A stretch of 64,000 nt of DNA, taken from positions 113,236 to 177,235 of the forward strand of contig JBGAIQ010000006.1 of the NCBI GenBank assembly GCA_044225365.1, written 5' to 3'. Shown here in pieces: positions 25,166 to 61,445 of the stretch (positions within the stretch are counted from its first letter, which is position 1; every line of letters starts with the position of its first letter). The notes beneath the pieces were generated by a model. That model saw only the letters and a program-made list of their open reading frames with translations. It did no database searches and had not been told where the DNA came from. Both the position numbers and the translations under genes were made by a program. This DNA comes from Planctomycetota bacterium. GTDB lineage: Bacteria; Planctomycetota; B15-G4; JADJEK01.

Positions 25166-26403
25166 GACAACGCCTCCCCGAACGCCCGTGCGACGGCGAG
25201 TCCGCTCTTCACTCCGTCCTCGTGGAACCCGTAACCGAGGTAGGCCCCGCAGTAGAACGTGTTCCGGACTCCTTGGATCGAATCGACGCGCGACTGCGCT
25301 TGGATTGCGTCCCGCGTGTAGATCGGATGTTCGTATTCGAACTTCTGCAGGATCGCGCCGCTGGCGAGGCGCTCGTCGCGATTCAGGGTCACGCAGTATT
25401 CGCGCTTCGACGTGAGGGACTGCAGCCGGTTCATCCAGTAGGTCACGCCGAGTTCACCTTCTCCGTCGCGATGGTAGTTCCACGCCGCCCAGGCCTTTCT
25501 CCTCCGGGGCAGGATCGACGAATCGGTGTGCAGGGTGACGGCGTTCTTCTGATACGGGATCGCGGAGAGGACGGCACGTTCCGCGTCACTCGGATCCTCG
25601 AGCATGCGTAACGCTTGATCGCTGTGGGCCGCGATGATGACGCGATCGAATCTCTCCACCGTGCCGCCGCGCGTCCGGACGTGTACGCCGTCCGCGTCGC
25701 GTCGCACGCTCGCGATCGGGCAGTTGGTTCGAACCGAGTCCTCGAAGCCAGCGACGAGTCGCTCGACGTAGGTCGACGAGCCGCCCTTCACGACGTACCA
25801 CTGCGGACGATCGTCCACCGTCAGGAATCCATGATTGTCGAAGAAGCGCGCGAACGTCGGGAAGGGGAACTCGAGCATCCGCGAGGGCTCCGCCGACCAG
25901 ATCGCGGCGCCCATCGGCACGATGTAGCGCTCGACGAAACTTCGGCCGTATCCGTGCTCGCGAATGAAGTCACCGAGAGTGATGTCGGCGGAACCATTCG
26001 CGGCAAAGCGCGTCGCGTCGCGATTGAATCGCAGGATGTCGCGCACCATCGACAGGAAGCTCGGGCGGAGGAGATTCCGTCGTTGCGCGAAGAGGGTATC
26101 GAGCGAGGTTCCGTTGTACTCGATCCCGGAGTCCTCGCACCGCACCGAGAAACTCATGTCGCTCTTCTGGGAGGCGACGCCGAGCGCTTTCAGCAGTCGA
26201 ATGAAGTTCGGATACGTGCGTTCGTTGAAGACGATGAATCCGGTATCGACCGCGAGCTCGCGATCCTCGTCGCGGACTCGCACCGTGTGCGTGTGGCCGC
26301 CGATCCAGTCGTTGGCTTCGAATAGGGTGACCTCGTGGTGCCGGCGCAACAGGTACCACGCCGTGAGACCCGAGATCCCCGCTCCGACGATGGCGATCTT
26401 CAT
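25162..26403 (-). CDS. FAD-dependent oxidoreductase, amine-oxidase family (UfaD-like)
   Basis: GAGISG, GGHTHT, VDTGFIVFNERTYPN, AWAAWNY, GYGFHEDG. Confidence 0.9.
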   Translation of the reverse strand: MKIAIVGAGISGLTAWYLLRRHHEVTLFEANDWIGGHTHTVRVRDEDRELAVDTGFIVFNERTYPNFIRLLKALGVASQKSDMSFSVRCEDSGIEYNGTSLDTLFAQRRNLLRPSFLSMVRDILRFNRDATRFAANGSADITLGDFIREHGYGRSFVERYIVPMGAAIWSAEPSRMLEFPFPTFARFFDNHGFLTVDDRPQWYVVKGGSSTYVERLVAGFEDSVRTNCPIASVRRDADGVHVRTRGGTVERFDRVIIAAHSDQALRMLEDPSDAERAVLSAIPYQKNAVTLHTDSSILPRRRKAWAAWNYHRDGEGELGVTYWMNRLQSLTSKREYCVTLNRDERLASGAILQKFEYEHPIYTRDAIQAQSRVDSIQGVRNTFYCGAYLGYGFHEDGVKSGLAVARAFGEALS

Positions 26404-27404
26404 GATCGTTCCGGCTGCACGTTCTTCGGATCACGGGCCTCACGACGGACTCCGGCACGCTCGCCGGGATAGACGTGCGCAGGGACGGGGCGCAGATCCG
26501 AGATGAGCCCGAGAGCTTCGAGGACGCGCAATCCCAGGTACGTGATGTCGATCTCGTACCAGGCGAAGCCCTGCTTCACCGAGTGCGGGTAGTGATGGTG
26601 ATTGTTGTGCCAGCCCTCGCCGAACGTGAGCGCCGCGAGCCACGGGTTGTTCCGACTTTCGTCGCCCGTCTCATAACGCCGGGAGCCGAAGCGGTGCGAG
26701 AGTGAATTGATCGTGCAGGTCGCGTGGAAGAGCACCACGGTCGAGATGAAATACCCCCAGACCACGAGTTGCATTCCGCTCGTCCCGAGTTGCGGAGATG
26801 CGAGTTCCAGGAACCGACCGACGGCGTAGAGGGAGGCGGCGAGGATCAGGGGGGCGAAGGTGTCGAAGCGGTCGAGGAATCTCAGTTCCCTATATCGGGC
26901 GAGATCGGGAACGGCTCCCACGGGAGTCGCGAAGTTCTCCTTCGACATGATCCATCCCATGTGCGACCAGAGCATCCCGTGCCGACCCGGTGAGTGAACG
27001 TCGTCCGCGGTGTCGCTCACTCGATGGTGATTGCGATGGTGTCCCGCCCACCACAAGGGTCCGCGCTGCGTCGCGGTCGCGCCGGTGAAGGCGAAGACGA
27101 ATTGCATGAATCTCGAAGTACGGAACGAGCGATGGGAGAAGTAGCGGTGATAGAAGCCGGTGATGGCGAACATCCGAACGGCATAGAGCACGAGCGCCGC
27201 GGCCACCGCGATCGTGCTCACGCCGTAGACGAATGCGAGCAGACACGCGGCATGCAGCAGGACGAACGGCAGGCATCGCAGCCAGTCGATCTCCTTCGTC
27301 GTCGGGTTCGCCATCGGAGCGTGCGCGTTGTCGAACCAACGCCGCAACGTCGCAAGCACACTCGAGCGAAGGCCCGTGGATCTCTCCGCCGATCGAGATC
27401 TCAC
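26400..27404 (-). CDS. acyl-CoA/acyl-lipid delta-9 desaturase
   Basis: His boxes [20 protein letters not shown]; start taken as the GTG overlapping the upstream stop (alternative ATG at 27314). Confidence 0.92.
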
Positions 27405-28462
27405 GAGCGCCCTCCATTGCGCTTGCTGAAGAGGTAGTGAGCGACCCACCACTCCGAGCCATCGTTCCAGGCGAACAGCTCCGCGCAAGCGAGGAAGAAG
27501 ACGCGCCAGCGTTGGAACCACTTCTCGCCCTCGCCCGCGCCGTACGTGCGATCGAAGAGCGCGATCACGGCATCGCGATGGCGATCGATCCGATCGAGCC
27601 AGGCTTCCGCCGTCCTCCCGTAGTGGACGCCGCTCACGACCCAATGGTCGTCCGCGGCGAGATCGTCCTGGAAGTGCAGAAAGAGGTCGTCGGAGGGCAT
27701 CTGGCCTCCGGTGAAGAAGTACCTCCCCATCCAATCGTCGTCGCTCTCGGTCTCGAACGGATAGGCCGCCTGCTTGTGACAGAAGACGTGGAAGAACAGC
27801 TTGCCGTCGGCTTCGAGCCAGGTCGCGATACGCGCGAAGAGCTCCTCGTAGTTCCGAAGGTGCTCGAACATCTCGACCGACACGACCCGATCGAATCGCG
27901 CTTCGCCTGCGTGCTGCGGCGGCTCGAACGTGTTGATGTCGGCCGTGATGATCTCGACGTTCGTGCGCCCGATCTCCGCGAGTCGTTTCTCGATGTGCTT
28001 CTTCTGCGACGCGGAGTTCGAGACCGCGACGATCCGGGCATTCGGATACCGCTCCGCCATCCAAACGGTGAGCGATCCCCAGCCGCAGCCGAGTTCGAGG
28101 ATCCGCTGGCCATCCGCGAGATTCGCGCGTTCGCAGGTCATACGGAGCATGTCGGCCTCGGCGACGTCGAGGTCGGCCACCCCTTCGTTGAAGTAGGCCG
28201 AGCTGTACTTTCGATGACGACCCAGCACGAGTTCGAAGAACTCGGGCGGCACTTCGTAATGCTGCTCGTTGGCAGCGCGAGTCTCGATCGCGAGCGGACT
28301 CTGCCGCAACGCCTCGATCCAACGGCGCTGACGCTCACTGCGCGCCTCGACTCCGCCGCGTTCGAGCTCGCCGATTCGACGCTTCAGGAGCCTTCGAATG
28401 CCGTAGCGGAGCATGGGCCGCGGCACGATGCCTTTGTCGATGATGGTGTCGAGGAGGGGCAA
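27401..28462 (-). CDS. CFA-synthase-like SAM-dependent methyltransferase
   Basis: [45 protein letters not shown]. Confidence 0.9.
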
Positions 28463-28471
28463 GTTCGAACC

Positions 28472-29275
28472 TCAGGCTGAAGTACGGGGGAACCAGGGAA
28501 TGAACGGGCTCGTGGTGCGCTGATACTCGCGATACGCGTCGCCACGCGAGCGGAGCGCCTGCGTCTCGGTCGGCGGGATGCCGGTGACCTTGAGCACGAG
28601 GAGGAGCATCACCGGCGGCGCGATCCAGGTCATCCAGTCGTAACTGAAGGATCCGCCGCTCGCGAGGATGGGATACGCGAGCCAGTGCAGCCACTCGAAG
28701 AAGTAGTTGGGATGCCGAGAGTATCGCCACAGGCCGACACGACAGACCTTGCCTCGATGACTCGAATCCGATCGGAACCTCTCCAATTGTCGGTCGGCGA
28801 CCGCCTCACCGAGGATCGATGCGACGAAACAGGCACCCCCGAACGCCAGTGGCAGCGCAGTCCCAGGAGGATCGAGAAGGACACCGAGACAGGACAAGGA
28901 CAGCACGACGACGGAGAGAGCCTGAGCCTGGAAGAAGCCGAAGAACCAGCCGTGCGCCGAGGCGCCTTTCGCGGCGCGGATCGCCGCATAACGCCCGTCC
29001 TCCTTCACGTGCCCGAGGACGCGGTGCGCAAGGAGATGCCACGCGAGCCGGACGGCCCACGTGCAGACGAGGACGACGACGACCCACGACGCCGCATCTC
29101 GCCGCTCGAGCGCGATCGCGTAGAAGATCGCGGTCGGCGCGAAGGCGAACGACCAGACCACATCGACGATGCTCGCGTCCTCCCGACGCTTCTGGACGAC
29201 CCACGCGGCCGCGAAGAGGACGGCAAGGCCGCCCCAAGCGAGCAGGAGGATCGAGGTCGTATGGAGCACCGTCAT
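28472..29275 (-). CDS. DUF1295-family membrane protein (steroid 5-alpha-reductase-like)
   Basis: IVDVVWS, EDGRY, ADRQL, GLWRYSRHPNYFFEW, TGIPPTE, YQRTTSPFIPW. Confidence 0.9.
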   Translation of the reverse strand: MTVLHTTSILLLAWGGLAVLFAAAWVVQKRREDASIVDVVWSFAFAPTAIFYAIALERRDAASWVVVVLVCTWAVRLAWHLLAHRVLGHVKEDGRYAAIRAAKGASAHGWFFGFFQAQALSVVVLSLSCLGVLLDPPGTALPLAFGGACFVASILGEAVADRQLERFRSDSSHRGKVCRVGLWRYSRHPNYFFEWLHWLAYPILASGGSFSYDWMTWIAPPVMLLLVLKVTGIPPTETQALRSRGDAYREYQRTTSPFIPWFPRTSA

Positions 29276-29293
29276 GGGAGTCTCGTCCTCCCC

Positions 29294-29321
29294 TTCGCAG
29301 CCGGCACCCAACCTGGATTCA
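29294..29321 (-). promoter_or_regulatory. candidate ECF (SigK/RpoE-type) promoter TGAATCC-N17-CGAA
   Basis: Minus strand reads TGAATCC-aggttgggtgccggctg-CGAA just upstream of the GGAGG RBS of the DUF1295 gene; resembles ATCC...CGAA/CGTA ECF promoters. Confidence 0.4.
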
Positions 29322-29362
29322 ACCGCCTGTCTTTTTTTCGAGATGAGCCGCGTCCGTCGGGG

Positions 29363-32266
29363 TCATGGGACCTTGCACCGTTCCAAGCCGGCCTTCGCCG
29401 CATCGAGCAGCCCGCCACGCGCTCCGAGATCGATCACGCGCGAGTAGCACGCCTTTGCGAGCGGCTTCGCATCGTCGCCCTCCGAGCACTCGTAGACGCG
29501 CCCGAGTTGGAAGAACGGCTCTGCGGTGTACGGAAAGGCCTCCGCGAGACCCCGAGCGTCCGCGGCGAGCTTCGTATCGGCGTGATCGCCGCGAGCGAAT
29601 CGCTCCGTGCGCGCGGTGATCGCTGCGAGACGATCGATGTACGCAGGGGACGCCCCCTTCAGGAATTCGTCGCTGATGCGCGTCATCGCATCGATGTCGC
29701 CATCGTTCGCGAGTCGGTCGTAGACGCGGGATCGCAACGCGAGGTTGCCGGACACCGCGAGAAGTCTCTGAGTGATCGCCGTGACATCGCGATCGACCCG
29801 GGATACGGCGTCGATCAGCGCCCGATCCACTGCGCCGGTGCAGGCCGTCTCGATCGCCTCCGGGCGCGTACCGACGAAGAGTCGGCGTCCGAGGCGTTGA
29901 TCGAGGGTGTCCGCGATTCGAGCAGCGTCGTTGCGATCGTGATCGAGGCCGGAGACGACGAAGTCGCACGCCGAGACTCCGACCGCGAACTCGGCATCCG
30001 CATAGACAGCGAAGGCCGGTCGCGAGAACGGGAGTTGAGTGGGACCCGAATCGACCCACTCACCGCCCGCCGCGATCACCGTCCTCGCGACGAGCGCCGC
30101 GAGCAACGCAGCCCCTTCCGACCCGCAGAGGTAGGCCCCCCTGGTCACGCGAAGCACATCGATCACGTCGTCGACTCCGCGCGCTTCGGTCGGCAGCGAC
30201 AATCCGAATCGCTCGCGTGCCCCGTGATCCGCGGCGCCGAGGAACGCCTCGATTGCGGCCGGCGATTCGATCGCAGCCCAAGGCGAGCTGAACTTGCATT
30301 GCGCGATCGCGTCGCGCGCGACCTCGCGCATCATCTGCGCGGACGGGAGCGCGCACGCTCCTCCGAGTCGCCGCGCGTCGTCGAGCGGGATCGAGTAGAA
30401 GTTCCACCGCGATCCCTTGTCGTCGAGCGCCGAGGTCGCTGCGAAGAGGAGCTTCCCTCCGGCGACACTCATCCCGACGCCGTCCGTGCCGCCGAGGAGG
30501 CGTTCGCGCGAGCCGTCCGCATGAATCCACCAGATCCCGTAGGTTTCGTTCTCCGGGGCGCCCGTGAAGAGGACACCGTCGTCGGCTCGCGCCAGTTCGC
30601 GCAGGTACGAGTATCGCAGCAGGTCGGTACGCACGCCGCTACGGAGGTCCAGGCTCGAGAGGGAGCCGGGACGATCCCCCGAAACGTCGACCTCGGTGAC
30701 GCCGACGTACAGGAGCTTCGCCGACGCATCGAGTTGACTATCTCCGACCCAGCCGGGTCTCCACGTCGCGATCGGTCGCTCGGCGCCATCCACTCCACGC
30801 AAGACGAAGTCGATCGGAACCGCGGTCTCTTGGACCACGAACCCGAGCGGGACGGGACCCTTCGTCGCATTCGAGTAGCGGACGAGCGCGATCCCAGAGT
30901 CGGTCTCGCCGCAGAGTCGCGTCGCGGAGAACGACACCGGGGCCTCCTGGCCTTCCGGGCCGATTCGAACGAGTCCGTCACGGCCCTGCGTGATCAACGA
31001 GTTGCCGAGCGTCGAGACTCCCCGACCCTGTACCTCACTCCCTTCGTAGAGAGGTTTTGCAGCGACGAAGTCGCGCTCGATTCGCAGGATGGACCGGCGA
31101 GTCGTGACGAGGATCCCACCGTCGAGGGCGGCATCGGCATCGACGACATCGAAGTCGAGGCTCGTAACGAATCGGCTCGCCGAGAGGAAGGCGGCGAACT
31201 CCGCTCCAGGTGTCCTGTGCGCCTTGGAAGCGGGCGGCAGCGTGAAGGGATCGAGGGGTCGAGGAGGATCGATCGTGATCGAATCGATCAAGGCCCGACG
31301 GATGCGGGAGACGGATTCGACCGGCGCTGGGTAGATCAGTCGGATGTCGATCGTTCTCTCGGCGGAGATCTCCGCGACGATCATCTCGATCATTTGCCCC
31401 TTGTTCCCAGGCATCTGGCGGACTTCGCGCAGGGCCGGCTTTCCGGCGAGTTGGAAGCGAGTGCGCGGCATCTCGGCGGGGATCGACTCGTCGCACCCGA
31501 CCTTGGCGACGATGTCGTCGAGTACTCCCTCGAGTCCCGCGGGATCGGGCTTCGAACCTCGTAGGAAGTGGACCGCCACGTCCCCGTTGGGGCTGACGAG
31601 CGAGAGCAGAGGATCGTTCGCGACCTTCTTCGCGTCGATCTCCGCAGGCACGTGCGAGACACGCACGGCCGAATCGTCGACTCGCACGATGCGGGTGCGC
31701 GGGCGCGTCGACCGTCCCCACGGGCTCTTCGCGCTCGGGAATTCGAGAGCGGTCCGAAGCTTCGTCCCATCGGCCTCGCCGTCCTTCGCGCGATCGGCAT
31801 CGATCTGGGACAGGATTAGGAAACCTAGTCCATTGCGCGATACGACCTGGACCACTGCGTGGCGTCGAACCTTGAGCTCGGTGATCTCGCACGAGAGTCG
31901 GCTCCAGTCGGTCTCCGTCGTCGAGGACTCCGAGGAGTGGAACTCGAACTCCGACGTGATCTTCGCGTCGAGATTGCGGTCGAGCGCACCGAACCAGTTC
32001 TCGATCACTCGTCGATGATCGGCCTCGACATCGACGGTTTGGCCGCACTCGACGACGAACAAGTACGTGTACGCCTTCTTCTCGGAGTCCACCTCGCGAA
32101 CGAACTGGTCGTCGCCGGCGCTCGCCACGATCCGCTGCCGCCTCCATCCCTCGTCGCAGTGCATCTTCGCGCCATGGGTCCCGATGTCGAAGTCTTCGCG
32201 CGCGATCGAGACTCGAGCCCCGGCGAGACATGCGAGCGCGACGATTCCATCGGCGATTCGGCGCAC
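29363..32266 (-). CDS. large (967 aa) secreted hypothetical protein
   Basis: GTG at 32266 after AAGGAGG; signal-like N-terminus; beta-rich middle; TPR-like C-terminus (FFQLGRVYE...AKACYSRVIDL). Confidence 0.7.
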   Translation of the reverse strand: MRRIADGIVALACLAGARVSIAREDFDIGTHGAKMHCDEGWRRQRIVASAGDDQFVREVDSEKKAYTYLFVVECGQTVDVEADHRRVIENWFGALDRNLDAKITSEFEFHSSESSTTETDWSRLSCEITELKVRRHAVVQVVSRNGLGFLILSQIDADRAKDGEADGTKLRTALEFPSAKSPWGRSTRPRTRIVRVDDSAVRVSHVPAEIDAKKVANDPLLSLVSPNGDVAVHFLRGSKPDPAGLEGVLDDIVAKVGCDESIPAEMPRTRFQLAGKPALREVRQMPGNKGQMIEMIVAEISAERTIDIRLIYPAPVESVSRIRRALIDSITIDPPRPLDPFTLPPASKAHRTPGAEFAAFLSASRFVTSLDFDVVDADAALDGGILVTTRRSILRIERDFVAAKPLYEGSEVQGRGVSTLGNSLITQGRDGLVRIGPEGQEAPVSFSATRLCGETDSGIALVRYSNATKGPVPLGFVVQETAVPIDFVLRGVDGAERPIATWRPGWVGDSQLDASAKLLYVGVTEVDVSGDRPGSLSSLDLRSGVRTDLLRYSYLRELARADDGVLFTGAPENETYGIWWIHADGSRERLLGGTDGVGMSVAGGKLLFAATSALDDKGSRWNFYSIPLDDARRLGGACALPSAQMMREVARDAIAQCKFSSPWAAIESPAAIEAFLGAADHGARERFGLSLPTEARGVDDVIDVLRVTRGAYLCGSEGAALLAALVARTVIAAGGEWVDSGPTQLPFSRPAFAVYADAEFAVGVSACDFVVSGLDHDRNDAARIADTLDQRLGRRLFVGTRPEAIETACTGAVDRALIDAVSRVDRDVTAITQRLLAVSGNLALRSRVYDRLANDGDIDAMTRISDEFLKGASPAYIDRLAAITARTERFARGDHADTKLAADARGLAEAFPYTAEPFFQLGRVYECSEGDDAKPLAKACYSRVIDLGARGGLLDAAKAGLERCKVP

Positions 32267-32304
32267 GGAACTTCCTCCTTCGGACGCCCGCGCGCGGGCC
32301 CGAG

Positions 32305-33081
32305 TCACGGCTGAGCGAGTGCAGCGATGCGGGATCGGTCCGAAACCACCACCCCGCCCGGTTTCTCCACGGTCACGGCGAACAACGCGGGCTCGGTCAC
32401 GCGAATCTTCGCTTCGATCGGCACGATCGCGTCCGGGCCCTCGCAGTCGAACACGCCGCCATCGACCGGGTAGCGATCGTCGCGCGTCTTGTCGAAGATC
32501 CACAGTTGGTATTGCTCGGCCTTGGCCTCGTTCGCTTTGAGGCCATGGAAGACCATGAAGCCCCGCTGCTCCTCAGAGGACCACACCACCTCGCCGTTCA
32601 TACCGGACCCGGTTCCAAGCGGATCCGGCCCGGCCTTCCAGTTCCAACGCTTCACATCGTGCGCGCGCGCGACGAGGCGATCCACCTCGAGTTGCGCCGC
32701 GGCGAGCGAGCGGTCGCCGAAAGTCTCGCGGGGAGTCTTCAGCAGGAAGAGGAATCCCGTGAGGACGACTGCGGCTGCGGCGAGATAGACGAGCGTATGC
32801 AAGCGGCGGAGTCCCTTGGGCGCCGATCGGGACTCGCCGGCCTGGGCCGTCGCCCGCAGGATCCGATCCCGCAGTGATGGCGGTAGCGGCTCCCGATCGC
32901 GCGCAGCGATCGCAAGGTCGGCCTCGGCGACGGTCTCCATCAGCACTCGACGGGGCACGTCGCGATGTCGCGCGAGCAGATGATCGAGTTCGCTGCGTTC
33001 CGACGCCGCGAGGCAGCCGAGGGCCTCGTCGGCGAGCAGTTCGAGCAAGCGCTCGCGCTCGGTTCGAAGAGTGCCGCTCAT
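32305..33081 (-). CDS. RskA-type anti-sigma factor
   Basis: ELLADEALGCL..SE, PPSLRDRIL, single TM, C-terminal QYQLWI...VDGGVF...FAVTVEKPGGV; ATGA overlap with the sigma gene. Confidence 0.88.
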   Translation of the reverse strand: MSGTLRTERERLLELLADEALGCLAASERSELDHLLARHRDVPRRVLMETVAEADLAIAARDREPLPPSLRDRILRATAQAGESRSAPKGLRRLHTLVYLAAAAVVLTGFLFLLKTPRETFGDRSLAAAQLEVDRLVARAHDVKRWNWKAGPDPLGTGSGMNGEVVWSSEEQRGFMVFHGLKANEAKAEQYQLWIFDKTRDDRYPVDGGVFDCEGPDAIVPIEAKIRVTEPALFAVTVEKPGGVVVSDRSRIAALAQP

Positions 33082-33662
33082 GATGGGACCTCCGCCGAAC
33101 CCGAAGCTCGGGGGTCGCCGGGTCGATCGTCCACTTCACCAAGGAGTCGCTTCACGGCGAGCAGTCCGCGGCGAGCGTGGGACTTCACCGTCCCGAGCGG
33201 CAGCTTCAGCAGACGGGAGATTCCGTCGTGTGAGATCCCCTTCATGATCGAGAGTTCGAGGATCCTGCGGCGTTCGGGATCGAGTGTGTCGAGAGCTTTC
33301 CGCACTCGCGAGGTCTCGTCCCCGATCTCCGCGACCGACTCCTCGGGAATGGGCGCGGATGGTTCGGCGACATTGTCGAGCGATGCGGTCCCTGCCTGAC
33401 GCTCGGCCTGACGACGACGATCGACGATTCGCCGCCGCGCGATCATCGCGACGAACGCGGCCTCGGGCGCGATCGTCGCATCGAAGCGCGCGGCCGCCTT
33501 CCAGATCGCGACGAAGGCGTCCTGCGCGGCGTCCTCCGCGTCGGCGGCGCTGTACGACAATCGGCGAGCGAGCGACCAGACGAGACCACCGTAGCGATCG
33601 AGACACTCCTCGACCGCCTTGGGATCACCTCGCCCGATACGTTCCAGGATCGATTCGCTCAC
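33078..33662 (-). CDS. ECF sigma factor (SigK-like)
   Basis: DAEDAAQDAFVAIWKAAARFD, IARRRIVD, GISH..IS..LKLPLGTVKSHARRGL; GTG start at 33662. Confidence 0.92.
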   Translation of the reverse strand: MSESILERIGRGDPKAVEECLDRYGGLVWSLARRLSYSAADAEDAAQDAFVAIWKAAARFDATIAPEAAFVAMIARRRIVDRRRQAERQAGTASLDNVAEPSAPIPEESVAEIGDETSRVRKALDTLDPERRRILELSIMKGISHDGISRLLKLPLGTVKSHARRGLLAVKRLLGEVDDRPGDPRASGSAEVPS

Positions 33663-34069
33663 GCGCTCGCAACTGCCTCCAACGTCGCCCTGCGCACGGA
33701 CTGCGCGGGACGAGGAGGATGGAACCGAATTCTGCGCGGCATCGCAACCGGGAATCAGGGCGATCTCGTCGATCTCGCATTCGCGACCGTGCGGGTGCGC
33801 TCGCGCATCTCTTGCCCAGGCAGCGTGAATCACCGCGAACGGCGAAGAAGCCGCCTCGAATCCGGTGCAGGTGGAGACCAAGGTTCTCGGGCTCTCGTTT
33901 CGAGGTTCGGTCGCGCGCCGAGACGGAGTGCCTCTACGATCCCGCGCAACGGCTGTTATCCTGTGGCGAGCCCGCGACGGATGCAGCGAAGCCGGAAAGA
34001 CTCGTTGCGAACGGCGATCAGGTCGCAGTACACCAAGGCGTTCATCGAGAGACGAAGAGACCGGGCAGC

Positions 34070-35482
34070 ATGTTCGAGCGATTCACCGACACGGCGGCGG
34101 AGGCGCTGCGCATAGCGGAGCGCGAGGCGGATGCCGCGTGCCGTAGTGCGGTTGGGAGCGAGCACCTGCTCCTCGGGCTCTTCCAGGTGCGAGCCGTCGC
34201 CTCGATCGTGTTGAGACAGTCGGGGGGAGATCTCGACCGCTGCCGCGCCCATCTCGCGAAATCGATGGGTGGCGCTCACGTCGCGATCGCACGTCACCTC
34301 CGCCGCGCGCTGCGCAAGAGCCTTGGCGACGTATCCCAGCGCTACAGCACGAACCTCGCCCGAGTGCTCGCCCTCGCGGAGGAGGCCGCTCGCGAACTCG
34401 CACACCCCAAGGTGGGGACCGAGCACCTGCTCTGGGCGCTCGTCGAACACGCGGATGGAATCACTCGATCTTACTTCGAGTCGATCGAACTCTCACCGGA
34501 GCAAGCTCGGCGACAGATCCTCGAGATGCTGCGCGTCGCGCAGACGGCGTTGAAGGATCAGGGAGCGGACGATCGTCGCGGAAGGAAGCGTCGGTCACCT
34601 CTGCTCGACATGTTCACGACGGATCTCGTGCGTCGCGCGCGAAAGAACAAGCTGCCGCGATTGATCCGCCGCACTGCCGAGGCGCAACGCATCCACGAGG
34701 CGATGCTCCGCATGATCGCGCGCAATGCGCTCGTCGTCGGCGAGAACGGGTGCGGGAAGACCGCTCTCGTTCAGACCTTTGCCAAGGAGATTGCGCTCGG
34801 CGGAGCCCCGGAACCGCTCCTGCGCAAACGCATCCTCGAACTCGATCCCATCCTCCTCGTCGCCGGCACGAAGTACCGCGGGGAGTTCGAAGAACGGATC
34901 ACGAACCTCCTGCTCGAGATCCAGAAGGCGGGCGACGTCATCCTCTTCATCGACGACGTCCATCTCCTCGCACTGCCGTCCACCCAGGGCAGGAATGACG
35001 GCGCGGCCGGTGTGTCGAATCTGATGCACTTGCTCTCGCCCGCGATCGATCGATTCGAGGTGCAGATGATCGCGACCTGCGCCAAGAGCGCCGAGTCGCG
35101 GGTCATCGAGCAGTTCCCGACGCTCGGCACCGCGTTCCACCGTATCGTGCTCTCCCCTCCCAGCCGCGACGTGGTGCTCGCGATCCTGAACAAGAAGCGA
35201 CCCGAATACGAGGCTCATCATCGCCTGCGGATCGAGCCCGCGGCGCTCGCGACCGTTCTCGCCGCGGCCGAAGCGTCGCTCGGCGTGGATCCATCGGAAT
35301 CGCTCGTCGTCTCCGCACTCAAGATGCTCGATCGTGCCGCGTCGGAGGCCGTGCTCGATCGCGAACTGCGCAACCGCGAACGCACCGCCCTCGATGCCGC
35401 AGCCGTACGCGAACTCCTCGTCCTCGCGCAGGCGAACCCGCGCCATCCAACGCCAACGGCGAAGGCGGATTCGAATGCTTGA
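34070..35482 (+). CDS. ClpC-like protein 1: Clp N-domain + single AAA+ (D1) module
   Basis: MFERFTD, GSEHLLLGL and GTEHLLWAL repeats, Walker A GENGCGKT, pore loop AGTKYRGEFEER, Walker B ILFIDD; 470 aa, no D2. Confidence 0.88.
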   Translation: MFERFTDTAAEALRIAEREADAACRSAVGSEHLLLGLFQVRAVASIVLRQSGGDLDRCRAHLAKSMGGAHVAIARHLRRALRKSLGDVSQRYSTNLARVLALAEEAARELAHPKVGTEHLLWALVEHADGITRSYFESIELSPEQARRQILEMLRVAQTALKDQGADDRRGRKRRSPLLDMFTTDLVRRARKNKLPRLIRRTAEAQRIHEAMLRMIARNALVVGENGCGKTALVQTFAKEIALGGAPEPLLRKRILELDPILLVAGTKYRGEFEERITNLLLEIQKAGDVILFIDDVHLLALPSTQGRNDGAAGVSNLMHLLSPAIDRFEVQMIATCAKSAESRVIEQFPTLGTAFHRIVLSPPSRDVVLAILNKKRPEYEAHHRLRIEPAALATVLAAAEASLGVDPSESLVVSALKMLDRAASEAVLDRELRNRERTALDAAAVRELLVLAQANPRHPTPTAKADSNA

Positions 35483-37193
35483 ACGAGCTTCCGAACGCTG
35501 CCGCGACGCGCTCGAACGGGCGCGGCAACACGCCCTGCGGTTCCGCCACACACGGATCGGCACTTCGCATCTCCTGCTCGGCCTGCTCGACGAGGGCGCC
35601 GGCGTCGGGACATCGACGCTCCGTCACCTCGGTGTGGAGGTCAAGGTCGTCCGCGCCGAGATCGAGAGTCGCCTGCAGCCGGGAGCCGGAGTGATCGGGC
35701 GCAAGGCGATGCCCTTCGACGAGGAGTGTCGTGCGGCGCTCGCCGCGGCCGTGGGAGCGGCGAAGGAGCGCAACAGCCCCTACGTCGGCACCGAACACCT
35801 GCTCCTCGGTCTGCTCGCCGACGCTCACAGCTTCTCCGCTCGCGTACTCGACAAGTTCGGGATCACGCACAACGACGCCGCCGCGGCAGCCGCCGAGTTG
35901 AAGGCGGATCCGCAGCGCCCCGCGTCCGCCCGGGCGCAGGATTCCCGGGATCGCAAGCCGCGTTCGCCTCGCCTCGGACCCACGAGCCAGCTCGACACCA
36001 TCGCCGTCGACCTCGCGAATCGCACGCAGCGCCGTCAACTCCGTCCCGTATGTGGTCGCTTCGCCGAACTCGAACGCATCAAGCACCTCCTCTCCCAAGA
36101 GCCACGCACTTCGGTATTCGTGCTCGGCAAGAGCGGAGTGGGCAAGACGTCGGCAGTGTTCGCGCTCGCGCGCGACATCCTCATCGGCAGCGTCCCGTCC
36201 GCACTCCTCGGCAAGCGCATGCTCGCGATCGATCCCGTACGACTTGCCGCGGGATGCCGGCACAAGGACCAGCTCGAACAACGCGTCGACGAGATCGTCG
36301 CGCAAGCCGAACGCGCACGCGACGTGATCCTCGTGTTCGACGATGCCGGCTGGCTCTTGAACGGGGTGCATGACATTCATGATCACCACGACGGCCACAT
36401 CGGCCACTTCGAGGGAACGACGCACTCGCTCCAGCGCGGTCGCGAAGCGCGCGACGACGCGCCAGCCGGACTCGAGAGCGAACGACCGTCCAACCCGGAC
36501 GTCACCGACATGTTCGCGCGCTTCCGACCGGCGCTCGAAGCGCGCCGACTCCAGGCGATCCTCACCCTCGCGCCGAACGGCGAACCGGACGCGGAGAGCA
36601 AGCTCCTGCGGGCGAACTTCGGTGATTGGTTCGAATGCGTCTCGCTCTTCCCGGCCGACATCGATCGGACTCTGATGACGGTCTACGAACTGCGGGAGCA
36701 ACTCGAGAACCATCATCGGGTGACCATCACCGAAGATGCTCTGAAGACCGCCGTCCAACTCGCCGTTTCGGCGGGCGACAAGAACGATCTGCTCACCACC
36801 GCGCTCCGCCTCGTCGACGAAACCGGAGCACGCCTCACCGCACGCGCTTTCACCCCACCCGTTCGCGCCACCAAGCTGGTTCGCGAGATCGAGAAGCTCG
36901 AGGCCGCGCGCTCCGAGGCGTTCGAGCGCAAGGATCATTCCGACGCCGCACGACGCTTCGACGAAGCTCGCGCGAATCGTGAGCTGCTCGAACAGATCGA
37001 GCGACGCTGGCGCACGGAGCTTCGCGAGAAGCTGCGGGTCGTCGACGAGACCGCGATCGCGGAGACCTGGTCGATCCACGGCGGTTATCGTACGGCTGAG
37101 CCGAATCGAGCGACGCCGCGGGCCGACGCTCCATCGTTCGAACCGCCCACCGAACCCACCGAGTCCAGCAAGCCATCGGACGGCGGCGCATGA
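35475..37193 (+). CDS. ClpC-like protein 2: Clp N-domain + D1 + UVR-like M-domain, with His-rich insert
   Basis: GTSHLLLGL and GTEHLLLGL, GKSGVGKT, AGCRHKDQLEQR, ILVFDD, coiled coil EIEKLEAARSEAFERKDHSDAARRFD; 572 aa; 8-bp overlap with paralog 1. Confidence 0.85.
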   Translation: MLERASERCRDALERARQHALRFRHTRIGTSHLLLGLLDEGAGVGTSTLRHLGVEVKVVRAEIESRLQPGAGVIGRKAMPFDEECRAALAAAVGAAKERNSPYVGTEHLLLGLLADAHSFSARVLDKFGITHNDAAAAAAELKADPQRPASARAQDSRDRKPRSPRLGPTSQLDTIAVDLANRTQRRQLRPVCGRFAELERIKHLLSQEPRTSVFVLGKSGVGKTSAVFALARDILIGSVPSALLGKRMLAIDPVRLAAGCRHKDQLEQRVDEIVAQAERARDVILVFDDAGWLLNGVHDIHDHHDGHIGHFEGTTHSLQRGREARDDAPAGLESERPSNPDVTDMFARFRPALEARRLQAILTLAPNGEPDAESKLLRANFGDWFECVSLFPADIDRTLMTVYELREQLENHHRVTITEDALKTAVQLAVSAGDKNDLLTTALRLVDETGARLTARAFTPPVRATKLVREIEKLEAARSEAFERKDHSDAARRFDEARANRELLEQIERRWRTELREKLRVVDETAIAETWSIHGGYRTAEPNRATPRADAPSFEPPTEPTESSKPSDGGA

Positions 37194-38707
37194 TCGATGC
37201 AAATGCCGCAGGAGCGGAGGTCCAGGCATCCGCCCTCGAAGAAGCCATGACCGACACGACCGCGCCAGCTCCCACCGGATTGCTCAGCATCGCGATGCAC
37301 GAAGCTCGCGAACTGTCGCACGATCACGTGGGAACCGAACATCTCCTGCTCGGACTCCTGCTCGAAGAAGGCGGAGCCGCACGGGCGATCCTGAACGAGC
37401 AGGGCATCACGGCCGAGCAGCTCCGAGCCGAGTTGAAGCGGGCGATCGGCGCGTCGACCGAAAAGGCTTCGAACAGTCCGCTCCCCATCACTCCGCGAGT
37501 GAAGCAAGCCCTCGAGAGCGGCGCCGAGGCCGCGCGACGCACCCATCACGGCGACGTTCGGTCGGAGCACGTGCTGCTCGGACTGCTCGATCAGGCCGAT
37601 GGCCTCGCGCGGCGCGCGCTCGAGCGTTTCTCCGTCGACATCGATGAATGCCGCCGCCGCACGCAGGAGCGCCTGCGAAGCGACGCACAGAACGACGACA
37701 AGCCCGAGCCGCGCGAGGCCGAGATCCCGGCGCTCGAAGCGTTCGGCGAAGAAGTGGCGGTTCGCGAATCCGAGAGCCTCGGGCTCGCGCCCATTCCGCC
37801 ATTCGACCATGCAGTGCTCGTCGGACTCCTGCGGCGGGAGAATCGGGCGATCCTTCTGTGCGGAGCGAGCGGCTGCGGAAAGACGAGCGCCGCGAAACGG
37901 CTCGGCGCCGCATTGCGTTCACGACGCGGGGCGTTCGAACTGCCGCTGCGCCGTCTCGTCGCGATCCCGCTGCCCTGCATCGTCGCCGGCGCGCGACACC
38001 GCGGGCGAGTCGAGGAACGCCTGCGCATCGTGTTCAAGGAAGCGGCGGAGAGTGGCGACGTCGCGCTCTTCTTCGACGACTTCGAGTGCGTCCTCGGCTG
38101 CAACGAACTCGCGCTCGCGCTCGAACTCGCGATGGCGGCTTTCACGATCCCGATCGTCGCCGCCATCGATACGGTGGCTCTCGAGACGCTCGCTCGCAAT
38201 CACCCCTCGCTCTACTCGCGATTCGTGCGAATGGCCGTCCCACCGCTCCTCGAGACCGCGCTCGATGCCGCGCTTCGCGAGCAGGCGAGGCGACTCGAGC
38301 AATTCCATTCGATGCGGATCACGGATGCTGCGCTCGTCGCTGCCGCCGATGCCGGTTCGGCCGATTCCCGCGGCCACGGCGCGTCGCGCCTGTCGAACGC
38401 GATCACGTTGCTCGACCGCGCGGCCGCCGCGGTTCGCGCCGCGATGCTGCGGCCGTCGCCTGCGATCAAGACCGTGCTCGCGGATGCGATCCGCTTCGAG
38501 CGCGAGGCCGATCAGGCCGCCGCCGAGGGTGACGAGCGCCGATGCGCGAGTCTCGCCGCCAAAGCAGGCGCCTCGCGAGCGACCGCTCACGCGCTGATCC
38601 TCGCGTTGTCCTCCACGGCATCTTCGGTCGAACTCACGGCCGAACACGTCCAAGTTGCGCGTCGTCGCGCCACCGCACGTCCGCCTTCACCCAAGATGCA
38701 CACCTGA
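37190..38707 (+). CDS. ClpC-like protein 3: Clp N-domain + D1
   Basis: GTEHLLLGL and RSEHVLLGL, GASGCGKT, AGARHRGRVEER, LFFDD; 505 aa; ATGA overlap. Confidence 0.85.
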   Translation: MIDANAAGAEVQASALEEAMTDTTAPAPTGLLSIAMHEARELSHDHVGTEHLLLGLLLEEGGAARAILNEQGITAEQLRAELKRAIGASTEKASNSPLPITPRVKQALESGAEAARRTHHGDVRSEHVLLGLLDQADGLARRALERFSVDIDECRRRTQERLRSDAQNDDKPEPREAEIPALEAFGEEVAVRESESLGLAPIPPFDHAVLVGLLRRENRAILLCGASGCGKTSAAKRLGAALRSRRGAFELPLRRLVAIPLPCIVAGARHRGRVEERLRIVFKEAAESGDVALFFDDFECVLGCNELALALELAMAAFTIPIVAAIDTVALETLARNHPSLYSRFVRMAVPPLLETALDAALREQARRLEQFHSMRITDAALVAAADAGSADSRGHGASRLSNAITLLDRAAAAVRAAMLRPSPAIKTVLADAIRFEREADQAAAEGDERRCASLAAKAGASRATAHALILALSSTASSVELTAEHVQVARRRATARPPSPKMHT

Positions 38708-38717
38708 CAGGGCCAGA

Positions 38718-40205
38718 ATGTTCGAACGCTTCACCGATCGCACGCGCCGCGTGCTCGTCCTCGCGCGCCAGCACGCCCATCGCATGCAACACGCGGCACT
38801 CGAGGCGCATCACCTCCTGCTCGGAATGCTGGAAGAGGCGAAGGCGACCGACGGCAGCGCGGAGCGACTCCTCGGCATCGACATCGAGAGCGCCAAGGCG
38901 ATGGTCGATCGGATCGCGCCGCTCGGCAACCGTCCACCCGACGCTCACGACGCGCTGCCCTTCGGTCCGTCCGCGCGTGCACTCCTCGTGCGCGCCACCG
39001 CCGAGGCCGATGCATCGCGTTCGGAGGGCGTCGATCTCGAACACCTCGTCCTCGCGCTCGCGCTGGATGAGAGCCACCCGGCGGCCAAGCTCGTCGAACA
39101 GAACGGACGATCGCTCGAACAGGTTCGTCGCGACGTGCGGGACATCCTCGCCCCGCGCGCGCACGAGCTCGAGTCGGTCGTCGAGGAGACGCATCGCACG
39201 CCTGCCCTGGATGCGTTCTGCCACAATCTCGTCGATCGCGCTCACCAAGGCCAGCTCGACCCGTTCGTCGGCCGAGGCGCCGAACTGGAACGTCTCTACG
39301 AGATCCTCTTGTGCCGCCGCGACGCCAACGCGCTGCTCGTCGGATCGAGTGGTTCCGGCAAGACCGCGCTCGCCCGCGGTCTCGCGATCGCCATCGCCGA
39401 AGGCACGGCTCCCACACCGCTGCTGTCGGCCAAGCTCTTCGCCGTCAACTCGCTTGCTCTTCTCGCCGGCACGCGGTATCGCGGGCAGCTCGAAGAACGC
39501 GTGAAGGCGCTGCTCTACGAAGCACGCAAGCTCTCGCAGGTCATCCTCTTCATCGACGACGCACAAGCGTTGCTCGGCGAAGAGGGCGCATCGACCGCTT
39601 GGCTCACCCACGACGTCCCCGGCGCCGGCTTCCTCTCGATGTTGAAGCACGCCTTCGACGCCGCCGAGACGAGGTTCATCCTCGCGCTCGACAGTGCGGC
39701 GCTCGCGCGCTTCCGCATCGCGCAGCCTTCGGCGCAGCGCCACCTCCAGGAGATCGACGTCGCACCGGCGAGCAAGAGCGAGACCGGTGACATCCTTCGC
39801 GCACTGAAGCCCCAGTTCGAGCTCTATCACGACGTCCGCATCGACGACGCCGCTCTCGCGACCGCGGTGCTGCAACGCCCGCGCCTGCAATCGCCGGGAG
39901 ACCCCAAGGACCGTGCGCTGCCGGGTCGAGCCGTCGATCTCATCGATCGGGCGTGCTCGGAGATCGCGCTCGCCTCGACCGAGCCGACCGAGGACCTGAA
40001 GCAGATCGAATCCGAGATCGCGCGACTCCAGCACGAGGAAGCGGAGAACGTGAAGGCGCGCGAATACATCGCGGCCGCCGCTGGCCGCGAAGCCCTCGAC
40101 ACCCTCGAGAAGCGCCGGGAGCGAATCCTGTCGGAGCGTCGCGGTCAACGCGCCGTCGACGCCGCCGCGATCGAGCGCGCGGCGGCCAGTCTCGCCGGCG
40201 TCTGA
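38718..40205 (+). CDS. ClpC-like protein 4: Clp N-domain + D1 + M-domain
   Basis: MFERFTDRTRRVL, LDPFVGR..EL, GSSGSGKT, AGTRYRGQLEER, ILFIDD, RALPGRAVDLIDRA; 495 aa. Confidence 0.88.
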   Translation: MFERFTDRTRRVLVLARQHAHRMQHAALEAHHLLLGMLEEAKATDGSAERLLGIDIESAKAMVDRIAPLGNRPPDAHDALPFGPSARALLVRATAEADASRSEGVDLEHLVLALALDESHPAAKLVEQNGRSLEQVRRDVRDILAPRAHELESVVEETHRTPALDAFCHNLVDRAHQGQLDPFVGRGAELERLYEILLCRRDANALLVGSSGSGKTALARGLAIAIAEGTAPTPLLSAKLFAVNSLALLAGTRYRGQLEERVKALLYEARKLSQVILFIDDAQALLGEEGASTAWLTHDVPGAGFLSMLKHAFDAAETRFILALDSAALARFRIAQPSAQRHLQEIDVAPASKSETGDILRALKPQFELYHDVRIDDAALATAVLQRPRLQSPGDPKDRALPGRAVDLIDRACSEIALASTEPTEDLKQIESEIARLQHEEAENVKAREYIAAAAGREALDTLEKRRERILSERRGQRAVDAAAIERAAASLAGV

Positions 40206-40213
40206 ACGAACGC

Positions 40214-41596
40214 TCAGCCGTCGAGCGGCAGGAGCCGCACGTTCTTGAAGTGGATCTCCGCTCCTTCGGACTGCAGGCAGATGTGGCCCTTCACGCGGTC
40301 GGCTTCCGAGCCTTCGTTGAGAATCGTGCCGTTCACGGAGAGAACGACCGTTCCGTGATCGACCGTGATGCGGTAGTGGTTCCACTCGCCGATCGGCTTC
40401 TCGAAATGCTCGCCCGCATGCGTGCGCTTGGTGTTGCGGCCGTTCTTGCGATCCGCCGCGGTCTTCACCGGGAATTCCTCGATCTGCCAGAAGTCACCCG
40501 CGCTGTCGGACTCGAGCTGGGCTTCGAGGGACTTCGGCCACACCATGTCCTTGCCCGTCATACGCACGAGGACGCCGCTGTTGCGGCCGCCCTTGTCGCT
40601 CGGCTCCCACTGCCAGTCGACTTCGAGGATGTAGTCCTGGTAGTCGGCCTCGGTGCGGATGTAGCCGGCCGGGTTGCCCTTGCACACGATCATTCCGTCG
40701 CGCACCGACCACACCTGATCCATCTTCACGTTTGGATCGGTGAGGCAATAGGTCCAACCCTTCAGATCCTTGCCATCGAAGAGATCGATCCACGTGTCCT
40801 TCACGTCGCCCGTCGCGGCCCATTCACAGCCGCGAACCAGGAGCCGCTGGAACTGCCAGTCCTCGTGGGACGTGTGCGTCTCCGGCTTGTCGCGCCATAC
40901 GTGGCCGAGGGGCGTGTGGAAGACACGCGCCTTGCCGTACTGACCCACCATGATCATCGGTTCGTTCTGACCCGTGCCGCCTTCCTTGGGATCGGAGAAC
41001 GCGGTCGCGAGGACGGTGTAGGGCACGTTCTGCGCGTTCACGAGTTTGTGATACAGCTCGTCGGGATGCTGGCGCACTTCGCCGAGGCCGCGGGTGATCG
41101 GATGCGTGTAGTCGCCGATCGTGAGATCGAAGGGATGGTAGGTGCCATGGCCCGTCCCAGCGCGCCACAGGTGCCCGACGATCTTCTCGTACTCCGTGAA
41201 TCCCGGGAACGCGTTGTTCGCTGCATGGATCACGGCGACGTTGACTCCACCGGCGACCGCCGCGACGAAGCCCTTGTTCGCCGCATCGCTCCACGGCTTG
41301 CCGTTGTAGTCGAGCAGGATGAGCTTGTACTTCGAGAGCGCCGCCGCATCGGCCAGCGTTTCGCTCGGCGTCGTCGTGATCGTGACCTCGAACTTTCCGC
41401 TTCCCTCGAGCACGCGCTTCATGCTGCGGCTCGTGAAATCGAAGTCGTGGTTGTTCTCTCCGGTCACGATGAGCGTCGGGATCTTCTCGGCGTTGGCGCG
41501 AGGGGCGATTGGCGGAACGTCGGCGGCGGACGCTCGATTCATCGTGAAGAGCGAAAGGGTGGCGGTCACGAGGGCGAGGATGGCGCGAACATTCAT
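40214..41596 (-). CDS. secreted ThuA-like + DUF1080 (family 16 glycoside hydrolase-like) protein
   Basis: Signal peptide; TGENNH, DELYH, YGKARVFHTPLGH; DLFDGKDLKGW, NSGV, KPIGEWNHYRI, GHICLQSEG. Confidence 0.88.
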   Translation of the reverse strand: MNVRAILALVTATLSLFTMNRASAADVPPIAPRANAEKIPTLIVTGENNHDFDFTSRSMKRVLEGSGKFEVTITTTPSETLADAAALSKYKLILLDYNGKPWSDAANKGFVAAVAGGVNVAVIHAANNAFPGFTEYEKIVGHLWRAGTGHGTYHPFDLTIGDYTHPITRGLGEVRQHPDELYHKLVNAQNVPYTVLATAFSDPKEGGTGQNEPMIMVGQYGKARVFHTPLGHVWRDKPETHTSHEDWQFQRLLVRGCEWAATGDVKDTWIDLFDGKDLKGWTYCLTDPNVKMDQVWSVRDGMIVCKGNPAGYIRTEADYQDYILEVDWQWEPSDKGGRNSGVLVRMTGKDMVWPKSLEAQLESDSAGDFWQIEEFPVKTAADRKNGRNTKRTHAGEHFEKPIGEWNHYRITVDHGTVVLSVNGTILNEGSEADRVKGHICLQSEGAEIHFKNVRLLPLDG

Positions 41597-41721
41597 GACG
41601 AAGGGGGCTCCTGGCCGAACACTGGGATCGGCCGGGATGGTACTCTTATCCCTGTCCGCGAGAAACCCGGAGTCGGTTCGCGACCGCACGGGATCTTCTG
41701 TGGAGAAGGAGCGAACCAATC

Positions 41722-56530: not shown

Positions 56531-56687
56531 CGCGGTTTCGAGTCGACAGGGTTGCCCGGGCGCATTCAAGGGGCAAGGGCGCCAAACGGGGCGGGCATGC
56601 CGCGGCTTCCCGTCGCAGGTGACTCGGCGCGATCACGAACCTTGACACACTTGCCGATTGCTTCGGCCGTTCCTCCGCGCTTTGCTC

Positions 56688-58358: not shown

Positions 58359-58379
58359 AACGGGCTCGCCCGCTGCGCG

Positions 58380-59336: not shown

Positions 59337-59409
59337 TCCGTCGAACGATAGCGCAGCGAGGCGCGCAAAGATATTCGACGCTGGACCCCCGGATGCGAAC
59401 GAAAACCGC

Positions 59410-61254: not shown

Positions 61255-61445
61255 TCGCCCGCGCCGTAAGAGTCGTTCGAGATCGTTCTCGATCGTAGGT
61301 CTCGGGAACAGAGGCGATGCAACGACCTTTGGTTTTCGCGACATTGTCATCGCGATCGGCCGTTCCCATTCTCGAAGCGATCGCGCGCCGATCATGAACG
61401 GCTCATCGATCGCGGTTAGCGCATCCGCGCGAACGGAGAACTTGC

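Follow-up and report, generated by a model that had tools for sequence, protein, structure and literature searches.

Hsp100/Clp proteins are ATP-driven unfoldases. Can four adjacent Clp-like genes of a Planctomycetota bacterium, which share an aspartate at the position of the catalytic Walker-B glutamate, encode such machines, and if not, what would their products do? The genes lie in a stretch of 64,000 nucleotides (referred to as the window; contig JBGAIQ010000006.1 of assembly GCA_044225365.1, positions 113,236 to 177,235, forward strand), which has a G+C content of about 65%. An earlier note on this DNA had placed four Clp paralogs with this substitution at 34941-39560. That span covers the region from Walker B of the first gene to Walker B of the last, but the genes themselves, which we call A to D, run from 34070 to 40205 (all coordinates are those of the window):

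34070-35482, plus strand, gene A: 470 amino acids (aa); Clp_N repeats, first AAA+ module (D1) and lid, without middle domain (M-domain) and without second AAA+ module (D2)
35475-37193, plus strand, gene B: 572 aa; Clp_N, D1, lid and M-domain
37190-38707, plus strand, gene C: 505 aa; Clp_N, degenerate D1, lid and helical tail
38718-40205, plus strand, gene D: 495 aa; Clp_N, D1, lid and M-domain

Each gene ends with a stop codon (at 35482, 37193, 38707 and 40205, respectively). The start of B overlaps the stop of A by 8 nucleotides (nt), B and C overlap by 4 nt (ATGA), and 10 nt separate C from D; this tight spacing suggests co-expression and speaks for the interpretation favored below. For A, B and D, the assigned start codons agree with the N termini of relatives (MFERFTD…/MLER…). 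Gene C has a possible alternative start, the ATG at 37247 (486 aa), and the C orthologs begin near the second Met.

Clp_N, AAA and AAA_lid_9 were the sole Pfam domains of the four proteins. Clp_N was detected in all of them (E values from 3.9e-06 to 1.3e-25), also with our own N-domain profile, which, like the profiles for D1, the M-domain and D2, was built in this analysis from 40 full-length relatives. D1 was present in all four according to our profile and to Pfam AAA and AAA_lid_9, with Pfam AAA under its cut-off in B. The M-domain profile matched B and D but not A or C; C appears to have a weak coiled coil in its place, and the A-type orthologs end approximately 37 residues past the lid. 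Across all six frames of the window, the D2 profile gave zero matches. Furthermore, the matches to the NCBIfam ClpA/B/G/K/V models ended at approximately position 270-445 of models with 734-949 positions, and their scores (75-212 bits) did not reach any family cut-off (885-1900). The top score was that of D against ClpB (211.6 bits; cut-off 1232.1), and the match of A to the ClpB model (853 positions) was confined to positions 1-397 (179 bits; cut-off 1232).

The AlphaFold2 models of D and B (predicted local distance difference test [pLDDT] of 90.5 and 85.3, respectively) consist of an N-domain, an AAA+ module and a two-helix coiled coil, with the M-domain helices at residues 463-518 of B and 425-477 of D. 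The best Protein Data Bank (PDB) matches to the D model were ClpC chains. We conclude that A to D are natural N-D1(-M) halves without a second AAA+ module and not full Clp ATPases. The description as Clp paralogs holds in that the proteins are ClpC-like homologs, but it has to be narrowed to half-size proteins without D2. In ClpC, the ClpP-docking loop sits in D2, and D2 does much of the motor work in ClpC and ClpB. Since D2 is missing, all four proteins lack the ClpP-docking part of ClpC.

When the proteins were compared by phmmer to solved ClpC and ClpC1 chains, their motifs aligned with GEPGVGKT, AGTKYRGEFE, ILFIDELH and ALERRFQ. All strings quoted in the earlier note were found in the sequence at these homologous positions, and because they align to the canonical sites, they are homologous motifs and not look-alikes:

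34739-34762, plus strand, Walker A of A: GENGCGKT
36126-36149, plus strand, Walker A of B: GKSGVGKT
37862-37885, plus strand, Walker A of C: GASGCGKT
39342-39365, plus strand, Walker A of D: GSSGSGKT
34862-34885, plus strand, pore loop 1 of A: KYRG
36249-36272, plus strand, pore loop 1 of B: RHKD
37985-38008, plus strand, pore loop 1 of C: ARHRG
39465-39488, plus strand, pore loop 1 of D: TRYRG
34940-34963, plus strand, Walker B of A: ILFIDDVH, DD codons GACGAC; DD in 5/5 A-type proteins
36327-36350, plus strand, Walker B of B: ILVFDDAG, DD codons GACGAT; DD in 4/4 B-type proteins
38063-38086, plus strand, Walker B of C: ALFFDDFE, DD codons GACGAC; DD in 4/4 C-type proteins
39543-39566, plus strand, Walker B of D: ILFIDDAQ, DD codons GACGAC; DD in 6/6 D-type proteins
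35117-35137, plus strand, arginine-finger segment of A: PTLGTAF, finger pair TA, no Arg
36612-36632, plus strand, arginine-finger segment of B: ANFGDWF, finger pair DW, no Arg
38204-38224, plus strand, arginine-finger segment of C: PSLYSRF, finger pair SR
39726-39746, plus strand, arginine-finger segment of D: PSAQRHL, finger pair RH

As had been claimed, DE is changed to DD in Walker B of all four paralogs; the DD codons (GAC/GAT) are one transversion away from a Glu codon. The classic Clp "trap" variants carry Gln or Ala in place of this Glu, not Asp. The assignment of pore loop 1 was also correct, with Tyr in A and D (KYRG and RYRG) and His in B and C (RHKD and RHRG). The arginine fingers were described as eroded in all paralogs, which applies to A, B and C, but D keeps one Arg (QRH). 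Among the orthologs described below, finger Arg was found in 0/5 A-type and 1/4 B-type (P0360) proteins; the Arg of C is not conserved (1/4, the window copy only), while the single Arg of D ("RH") is present in 6/6. Sensor-1, which is GATT in ClpC, reads ATCA in A, LTLA in B, AAID in C and LALD in D and is lost. The lost sensor-1, the missing D2 and a wider family of short degenerate proteins (see below) go beyond the earlier note.

Two loops behind Walker B were also observed. B carries a 33-residue His-rich insert (8 His; residues 296-328, nt 36360-36458, plus strand) directly past Walker B, which is missing from 3/3 B orthologs. Residues 305-340 of B have a pLDDT of <50, so that the insert region is modeled as disordered; it may bind metal, and its site corresponds to the pore loop 2 region of Hsp100 D1. 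The D family has an approximately 10-residue-longer loop after Walker B (GEEGASTAS…; 39570-39640, D residues ~286-305), in which several positions are invariant in 6/6 proteins and residues 289-296 are flexible (pLDDT of <50).

The orthologs of A to D comprise 15 rare proteins of similar length from environmental sources, which are 41-61% identical to the window copies: four for A (50-58%), three for B (44-57%; 489-508 aa), three for C (41-46%) and five for D (55-59%). Including the window copies, the orthogroups thus have 5, 4, 4 and 6 members, respectively (19 in total), all of them intact. Beyond the orthologs, identity was at most 36%, and the matches were full-length ClpC proteins, the named ones from Phycisphaerae, Isosphaeraceae, Humisphaera and other Planctomycetota; the nearest named matches, from the first three, had 33-36% identity. 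Scanning one genome per species with the D-family alignment yielded 53 loci with ordinary Clp ATPases (best, 39%) and no ortholog; the source genome is evidently outside this collection. In a tblastn search with D, 2233 plasmid and 176 phage records were matched, all at <60% identity, and the 25 plasmid and 15 phage rows listed were 28-34% identical and in most cases carried an ordinary ClpC/ClpB annotation or none. For P0123 (A-type), P0241 (C-type) and P0004 (D-type), the longest contig listed was 32058 bp in each case, and for P0240 (C-type) and P0002 (D-type), it was 8936 bp. These shared contig sizes hint at the same cassette elsewhere.

An alignment of the orthologs, which had been suggested in the earlier note, confirmed that the substitution is conserved: Walker B contains DD in 15/15 orthologs (DE in 0/15) and consequently in 19/19 orthogroup members. 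Orthologs with DE, which the note had named as refuting its claim, were thus not encountered. For comparison, 318/321 relatives with both AAA+ modules have DE in Walker B of D1, and the other three have DD, ED and RD. By this measure, DD in the four window genes is more than a chance feature. Although Glu is only one base away, it occurs in 0/19 proteins, which argues that the Asp is held by selection and not by mere drift. The four window proteins are mutually only 21-39% identical (N-domain, D1 core and lid), and their D1 is 28-39% identical to that of ClpC.

The eroded catalytic motifs, together with long tree branches and an identity within the groups that is low in comparison to ClpC, could mean that the genes are decaying duplicates without function. 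We consider this most improbable. The four reading frames and the 15 orthologs are intact and of similar length, the groups have their own conserved variants (ARHRG, TRYRG and "RH"), the models of B and D are confident, and the G+C content at third codon positions of the B and D reading frames (0.79-0.82) is like that of the neighboring genes. Four orthogroups of intact proteins speak for selection, not decay.

Which parts of the proteins were kept was different for binding and hydrolysis. The P-loop skeleton G-x-x-G-x-G-[K/R]-[T/S] ends with [K/R][T/S] in 19/19 proteins. Just 16 of approximately 505 aligned columns are invariant across all 19; among them are the two Asp residues of Walker B, one Gly of the P-loop, and the Gly of the pore loop with the E-x-R that follows it. 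Pore loop 1 reads K/R-Y-R-G in 5/5 A-type, A-R-H-R-G in 4/4 C-type and T-R-Y-R-G in 6/6 D-type proteins; its invariant columns within these groups (6/8, 7/8 and 6/8, respectively) compare to a background of 0.23-0.32. In contrast, only 0-1 of 5 columns of sensor-1 and 0-3 of 7 columns of the arginine-finger segment are invariant per group. In A, B and C, conservation of the N-domain equals or exceeds that of the ATPase core. Judged from these alignments, the hydrolysis parts (sensor-1 and arginine fingers) are relaxed and the binding skeleton is kept.

To place the four groups, a quick IQ-TREE analysis (LG+C20+F+G4 with posterior mean site frequencies) was run on the N-D1-M region of 66 rows: the 19 orthogroup members, 29 short degenerate proteins chosen for their non-canonical motifs, and 12 ClpC and 6 ClpB proteins trimmed before D2. 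Each of the four orthogroups had a Shimodaira-Hasegawa-like approximate likelihood ratio test (SH-aLRT) support of 100. Together they formed one clade, with a support of only 88 in this quick tree, nested in a clade (support, 95) with seven other short proteins. With ClpB as the outgroup, the four groups and their short relatives were nested among Planctomycetota-type ClpC. The stems measured 0.86-1.27 changes per column, and eight rows were deviant in composition. According to this topology, the four to six lineages sampled clearly diverged only after the duplications, and a single origin of A to D is likely, but not secure. The proposal that the shared DD predates the duplications is the simplest account.

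We tentatively favor, with somewhat less than even confidence, the following explanation: A to D derive from Planctomycetota-type ClpC and act as a co-assembling, ATP-binding holder or regulator that hydrolyzes ATP slowly if at all. Holding or regulating other proteins, not unfolding them, is their probable task. In this explanation, the kept P-loop skeleton and Mg-binding Walker-B Asp mean that the nucleotide-binding pocket was retained, and the change of Glu to Asp, the lost sensor-1 and the lost trans-arginines (bar one in D) mean that the hydrolysis apparatus was dismantled. Four co-translated and co-conserved paralogs with complementary features (Arg only in D; Tyr or His loops) suggest a mixed oligomer, and the "specialised subunits" of the earlier note are in line with pore loops that differ from group to group and with the one Arg conserved in D.

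Accepting this, the four proteins would co-assemble into a mixed single-tier ring or another oligomer, with ATP as a ligand for assembly or switching that would be turned over slowly if at all. D may donate the sole arginine to the site of its neighbor. Clients or a partner would be bound and held by the well-conserved N-domains and by the pore-1 loops, which have Tyr in A and D and His in C, with no processive threading into a protease. ATP binding, slow hydrolysis, co-assembly and the holding role are all inferred, the first two from the motifs and from analogy to the systems compared below. A bolder version, which we regard as doubtful, would make the cassette a hetero-oligomeric ring of four hydrolysis-crippled ClpC halves, with ATP as a structural or timing ligand, D as the sole Arg donor and alternating Tyr and His loops clamping the client; it would be the tip of a widespread, so far unrecognized family of half-size Clp "pseudo-unfoldases" that serve as holdases or switches in stress responses.

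Several observations weigh against a holder or regulator that depends on bound ATP. Walker A is intact in the four window genes, as stated in the earlier note, but not throughout the family: the P-loop Lys is Arg in four of the 15 orthologs (4/19 members; P0121, P0123, P0242 and P0006), Asn replaces a P-loop Gly in P0242, and the P-loop of P0361 begins with APSG. In some lineages, the proteins may therefore do without nucleotide binding by now. Pore loop 1 of the B-type proteins is mixed (two His, one Tyr and one Lys), with 1/8 columns invariant. It is possible that long-branch attraction is behind the clade of A to D with its support of 88. In addition, a P-loop, pore loop or Walker B can no longer be recognized in many short proteins of the wider family. 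Finally, no ClpP, full-length ClpC or known adaptor is encoded within the window, so that the genes have no tie to a pathway there.

Some of these observations would suit nucleotide-independent scaffolds or adaptors, in which the AAA+ fold is only a platform for the N-domain and DD is a structural leftover. The change of Lys to Arg in 4/19 proteins, the degenerate P-loop of P0242, the relatives that lost all three motifs, and the N-domain as the best-conserved part of A, B and C are what such a role would predict. We nevertheless consider it highly unlikely, since the P-loop pattern and both Walker-B Asp residues were kept at a mutual identity of only 21-39%, which is hard to understand without bound nucleotide or Mg, and since the change of Lys to Arg preserves the positive charge.

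A further point against the favored holder or regulator is that Asp can act as a weaker base, which would leave a slow but real motor. The proteins would then form a working single-ring unfoldase or disaggregase with Asp as a slower catalytic base, the arginine of D, and Tyr and His loops pulling the substrate. The strong conservation of pore loop 1 in A, C and D, the P-loop and Mg-binding Asp in 19/19 proteins and the Arg conserved in 6/6 D-type proteins are compatible with such a machine, and in ABC proteins, sites with Glu changed to Asp hydrolyze ATP slowly according to passages of PMC7756269. However, sensor-1 is lost, finger Arg is found in only 0/5, 1/4 and 1/4 of the A-, B- and C-type proteins, and the P-loop Lys is replaced in 4/19 members; at most one kind of interface could be catalytically complete. 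Moreover, an invariant Asp with Glu one base off argues for selection against full activity. We consider a working unfoldase quite unlikely.

The tree also bears on a role as modulators of full-length ClpC. The proteins would join mixed rings with ClpC or cap its resting state via the shared D1 and M-domain surfaces. Having neither D2 with its ClpP loop nor the catalytic residues, they would damp or retarget proteolysis by ClpCP, perhaps during activity of the neighboring extracytoplasmic function (ECF) sigma factor. Their descent from Planctomycetota-type ClpC (nesting in the tree; named matches of 33-36% identity), the M-domain kept in B and D, and the divergent orientation of the genes to an ECF sigma/anti-sigma pair would fit. 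Furthermore, an N-D1-M half, ClpC(1-485), was solved with MecA, going by the entry PDB 3pxg, and such a half can thus engage ClpC partners. On the other hand, D1 is only 28-39% identical to that of ClpC, which makes the fit of the interface uncertain, A has no M-domain, and four distinct conserved paralogs exceed the need of a simple inhibitor. This role appears unlikely to us, and we retain the co-assembling holder or regulator as the favored explanation.

Half-size, catalytically degenerate Clp-like proteins extend beyond this cassette, as far as the sequences gathered here tell. In a Walker-B census, whose sample is biased because the relatives were gathered starting from the window's own proteins, 82 further proteins had D1 but not D2; 48 of them had Glu at the catalytic position, 29 did not, and 5 were gapped at the site. 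Those with Glu had scattered lengths (291-880 aa), and several short matches with canonical motifs are labeled "partial" by NCBI; they look like fragments. The 29 without Glu, which are cluster representatives and a lower bound, comprised DD in 9, ED in 6, DR in 3, and others; 21 of them were 481-509 aa long. In this biased sample, the catalytic Glu is missing in 48/96 short proteins versus 3/321 two-module proteins. The commonest phyla of ESM Atlas clusters with Clp_N, AAA and lid (433-578 aa) included Actinomycetota, Acidobacteriota, Fervidibacterota, Planctomycetota, Pseudomonadota and Bacillota.

Two other groups with unusual Walker B motifs were observed. P0280, P0288 and P0436 (679-685 aa) have an intact P-loop and GATT, a Walker B with "DR" and the finger pair "GF", and they form their own clade with a support of 100. 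In Clostridia metagenome-assembled genomes, two-module Clp proteins with DD in Walker B of D1 (L016, 9956-12229; L022, 5686-8433; L023, 9266-12013) carry the strings MIVFIDDA and IVLFIDDI and keep D2. The same substitution thus arose independently alongside a second motor.

The surroundings of the cassette contain the following features:

33078-33881, minus strand, SigK-like ECF sigma factor (Pfam Sigma70_r2/r4); real start probably near 33662
32305-33081, minus strand, RskA-type anti-sigma factor (Pfam RskA_C)
24347-33881, minus strand, gene run: sigma factor, anti-sigma factor, unknown protein, DUF1295 protein, cyclopropane-fatty-acid synthase, fatty-acid desaturase, flavin amine oxidase and DUF1365 protein
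40214-41719, minus strand, fusion of ThuA and 3-keto-disaccharide hydrolase (DUF1080-type), directly downstream of D and convergent
55184-56230, protein-kinase-domain protein, an ordinary gene
56658-61395, EamA transporter between two PMT-type glycosyltransferases (dolichyl-phosphate-mannose family), likewise ordinary genes

ThuA/DUF1080 fusions are typical of the gene repertoire of Planctomycetota and Verrucomicrobiota. The sigma/anti-sigma pair, for which the NCBIfam SigK-like and anti-sigma models matched below their cut-offs, is transcribed divergently from gene A. By this position, the ECF sigma factor may control the Clp-like genes. A promoter scan gave 0 sigma-70-like sites, a terminator scan gave two terminator-like sites inside C versus 3.8 expected, and by eye, no convincing ECF-type GGAAC motif was seen between the sigma factor gene and gene A. 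According to passages of PMC5507510, cyclopropane-fatty-acid synthase and flavin oxidase belong to the conserved RpoE-ChrR regulon of the oxidative and singlet-oxygen response. The lipid-modifying part of the minus-strand run resembles the core of that regulon as outlined there, but is combined here with a different type of anti-sigma factor. The unknown protein of the run (~960-1046 aa) has a lipobox-like N terminus (…ALAC…), and an Atlas search with the 1046-aa form reached a top score of only 0.75.

Two other roles were considered and rejected. For an anti-phage defense ATPase, PADLOC gave only P-loop-level matches covering 40-140 residues (mad8, 5e-05; TRIP13, 8.3e-05; IetA, 9.1e-04) and none for B or C. 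For a decoy of the ClpC N-domain that is linked to a natural product, no biosynthetic genes were found among the annotated neighbors, and an N-domain makes up only a part of these much larger proteins.

Among known systems, ClpC of the Planctomycetota type is closest: it shares the N-domain repeats, the D1 fold, the lid and, with B and D, the short M-domain, and ClpC/ClpC1 chains were the best matches in sequence and structure. A to D differ from it by the missing D2 with the ClpP-docking region, the change of Glu to Asp, the eroded sensor-1 and arginine fingers, and the NCBIfam scores below cut-off. The entry PDB 3pxg, titled "MecA121 and ClpC1-485 complex" and among our matches, has the same domain content as B and D; by its title it is a laboratory truncation, made from an active enzyme with canonical motifs, whereas here the halves are natural and present in four diverged, degenerate copies. 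ClpI of Actinomycetota is a further class of paralogs similar to ClpC and ClpB, which was recently recognized with bioinformatic methods. According to the portions of PMC10149685 that describe it, ClpI has retained features of an unfoldase and of ATP hydrolysis, in contrast to the single-module, degenerate A to D.

Outside the Clp proteins, several AAA+ proteins invite comparison. NSF D2 has Asp at the catalytic Walker-B position, and LAP1 and LULL1, the partners of TorsinA, are AAA-like proteins that donate an arginine. Passages of PMC5070193 describe nucleotide-dependent hexamerization by NSF D2 and a Pex1/Pex6 D1 without conserved arginine fingers and without contribution to the ATPase, which might serve hexamerization; Pex1/6 is a hetero-hexamer of paralogs, as mentioned in PMC4490564. 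Like A to D, these modules keep the AAA fold with little or no hydrolysis, which PMC5070193 in the passages concerned ties to hexamerization, but they are eukaryotic, belong to another AAA clade and have an active tier on the same chain, which A to D lack. The AAA+ activity of TorsinA needs a separate activator partner (LAP1/LULL1), as set out in part of PMC4999309, and the part proposed for D, that of the only subunit to donate an arginine, is similar to that of such a partner. However, TorsinA is eukaryotic, membrane associated and unrelated in sequence, and the direction in which an inactive protein activates an active one may not apply here. The same Walker-B change of Glu to Asp is found in the degenerate site of heterodimeric ABC exporters, where it is usual and where ATP is still bound but seems to be hydrolyzed far more slowly than the transport cycle, according to the relevant passages of PMC7756269. 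Since ABC proteins are not of the AAA+ fold family, this analogy is mechanistic only.

Searches of open-access papers and bioRxiv yielded no description of bacterial ClpC homologs that are half-size or of the DD type. As far as this literature goes, a bacterial Clp that has given up its motor and kept its substrate-facing parts would be undescribed. The finding also calls for caution in annotation, because the named orthologs are labeled "ATP-dependent Clp protease ATP-binding subunit ClpC" and almost certainly are not such subunits. The link between the loss of D2 and the loss of the catalytic Glu, seen in the biased census, suggests a general path by which unfoldases evolve into binders. Bacterial candidates for hetero-oligomeric AAA+ assemblies are rare; the conserved four-paralog cassette with its invariant Asp would be one of them and may represent a natural experiment on an AAA+ ring that uses ATP binding alone.

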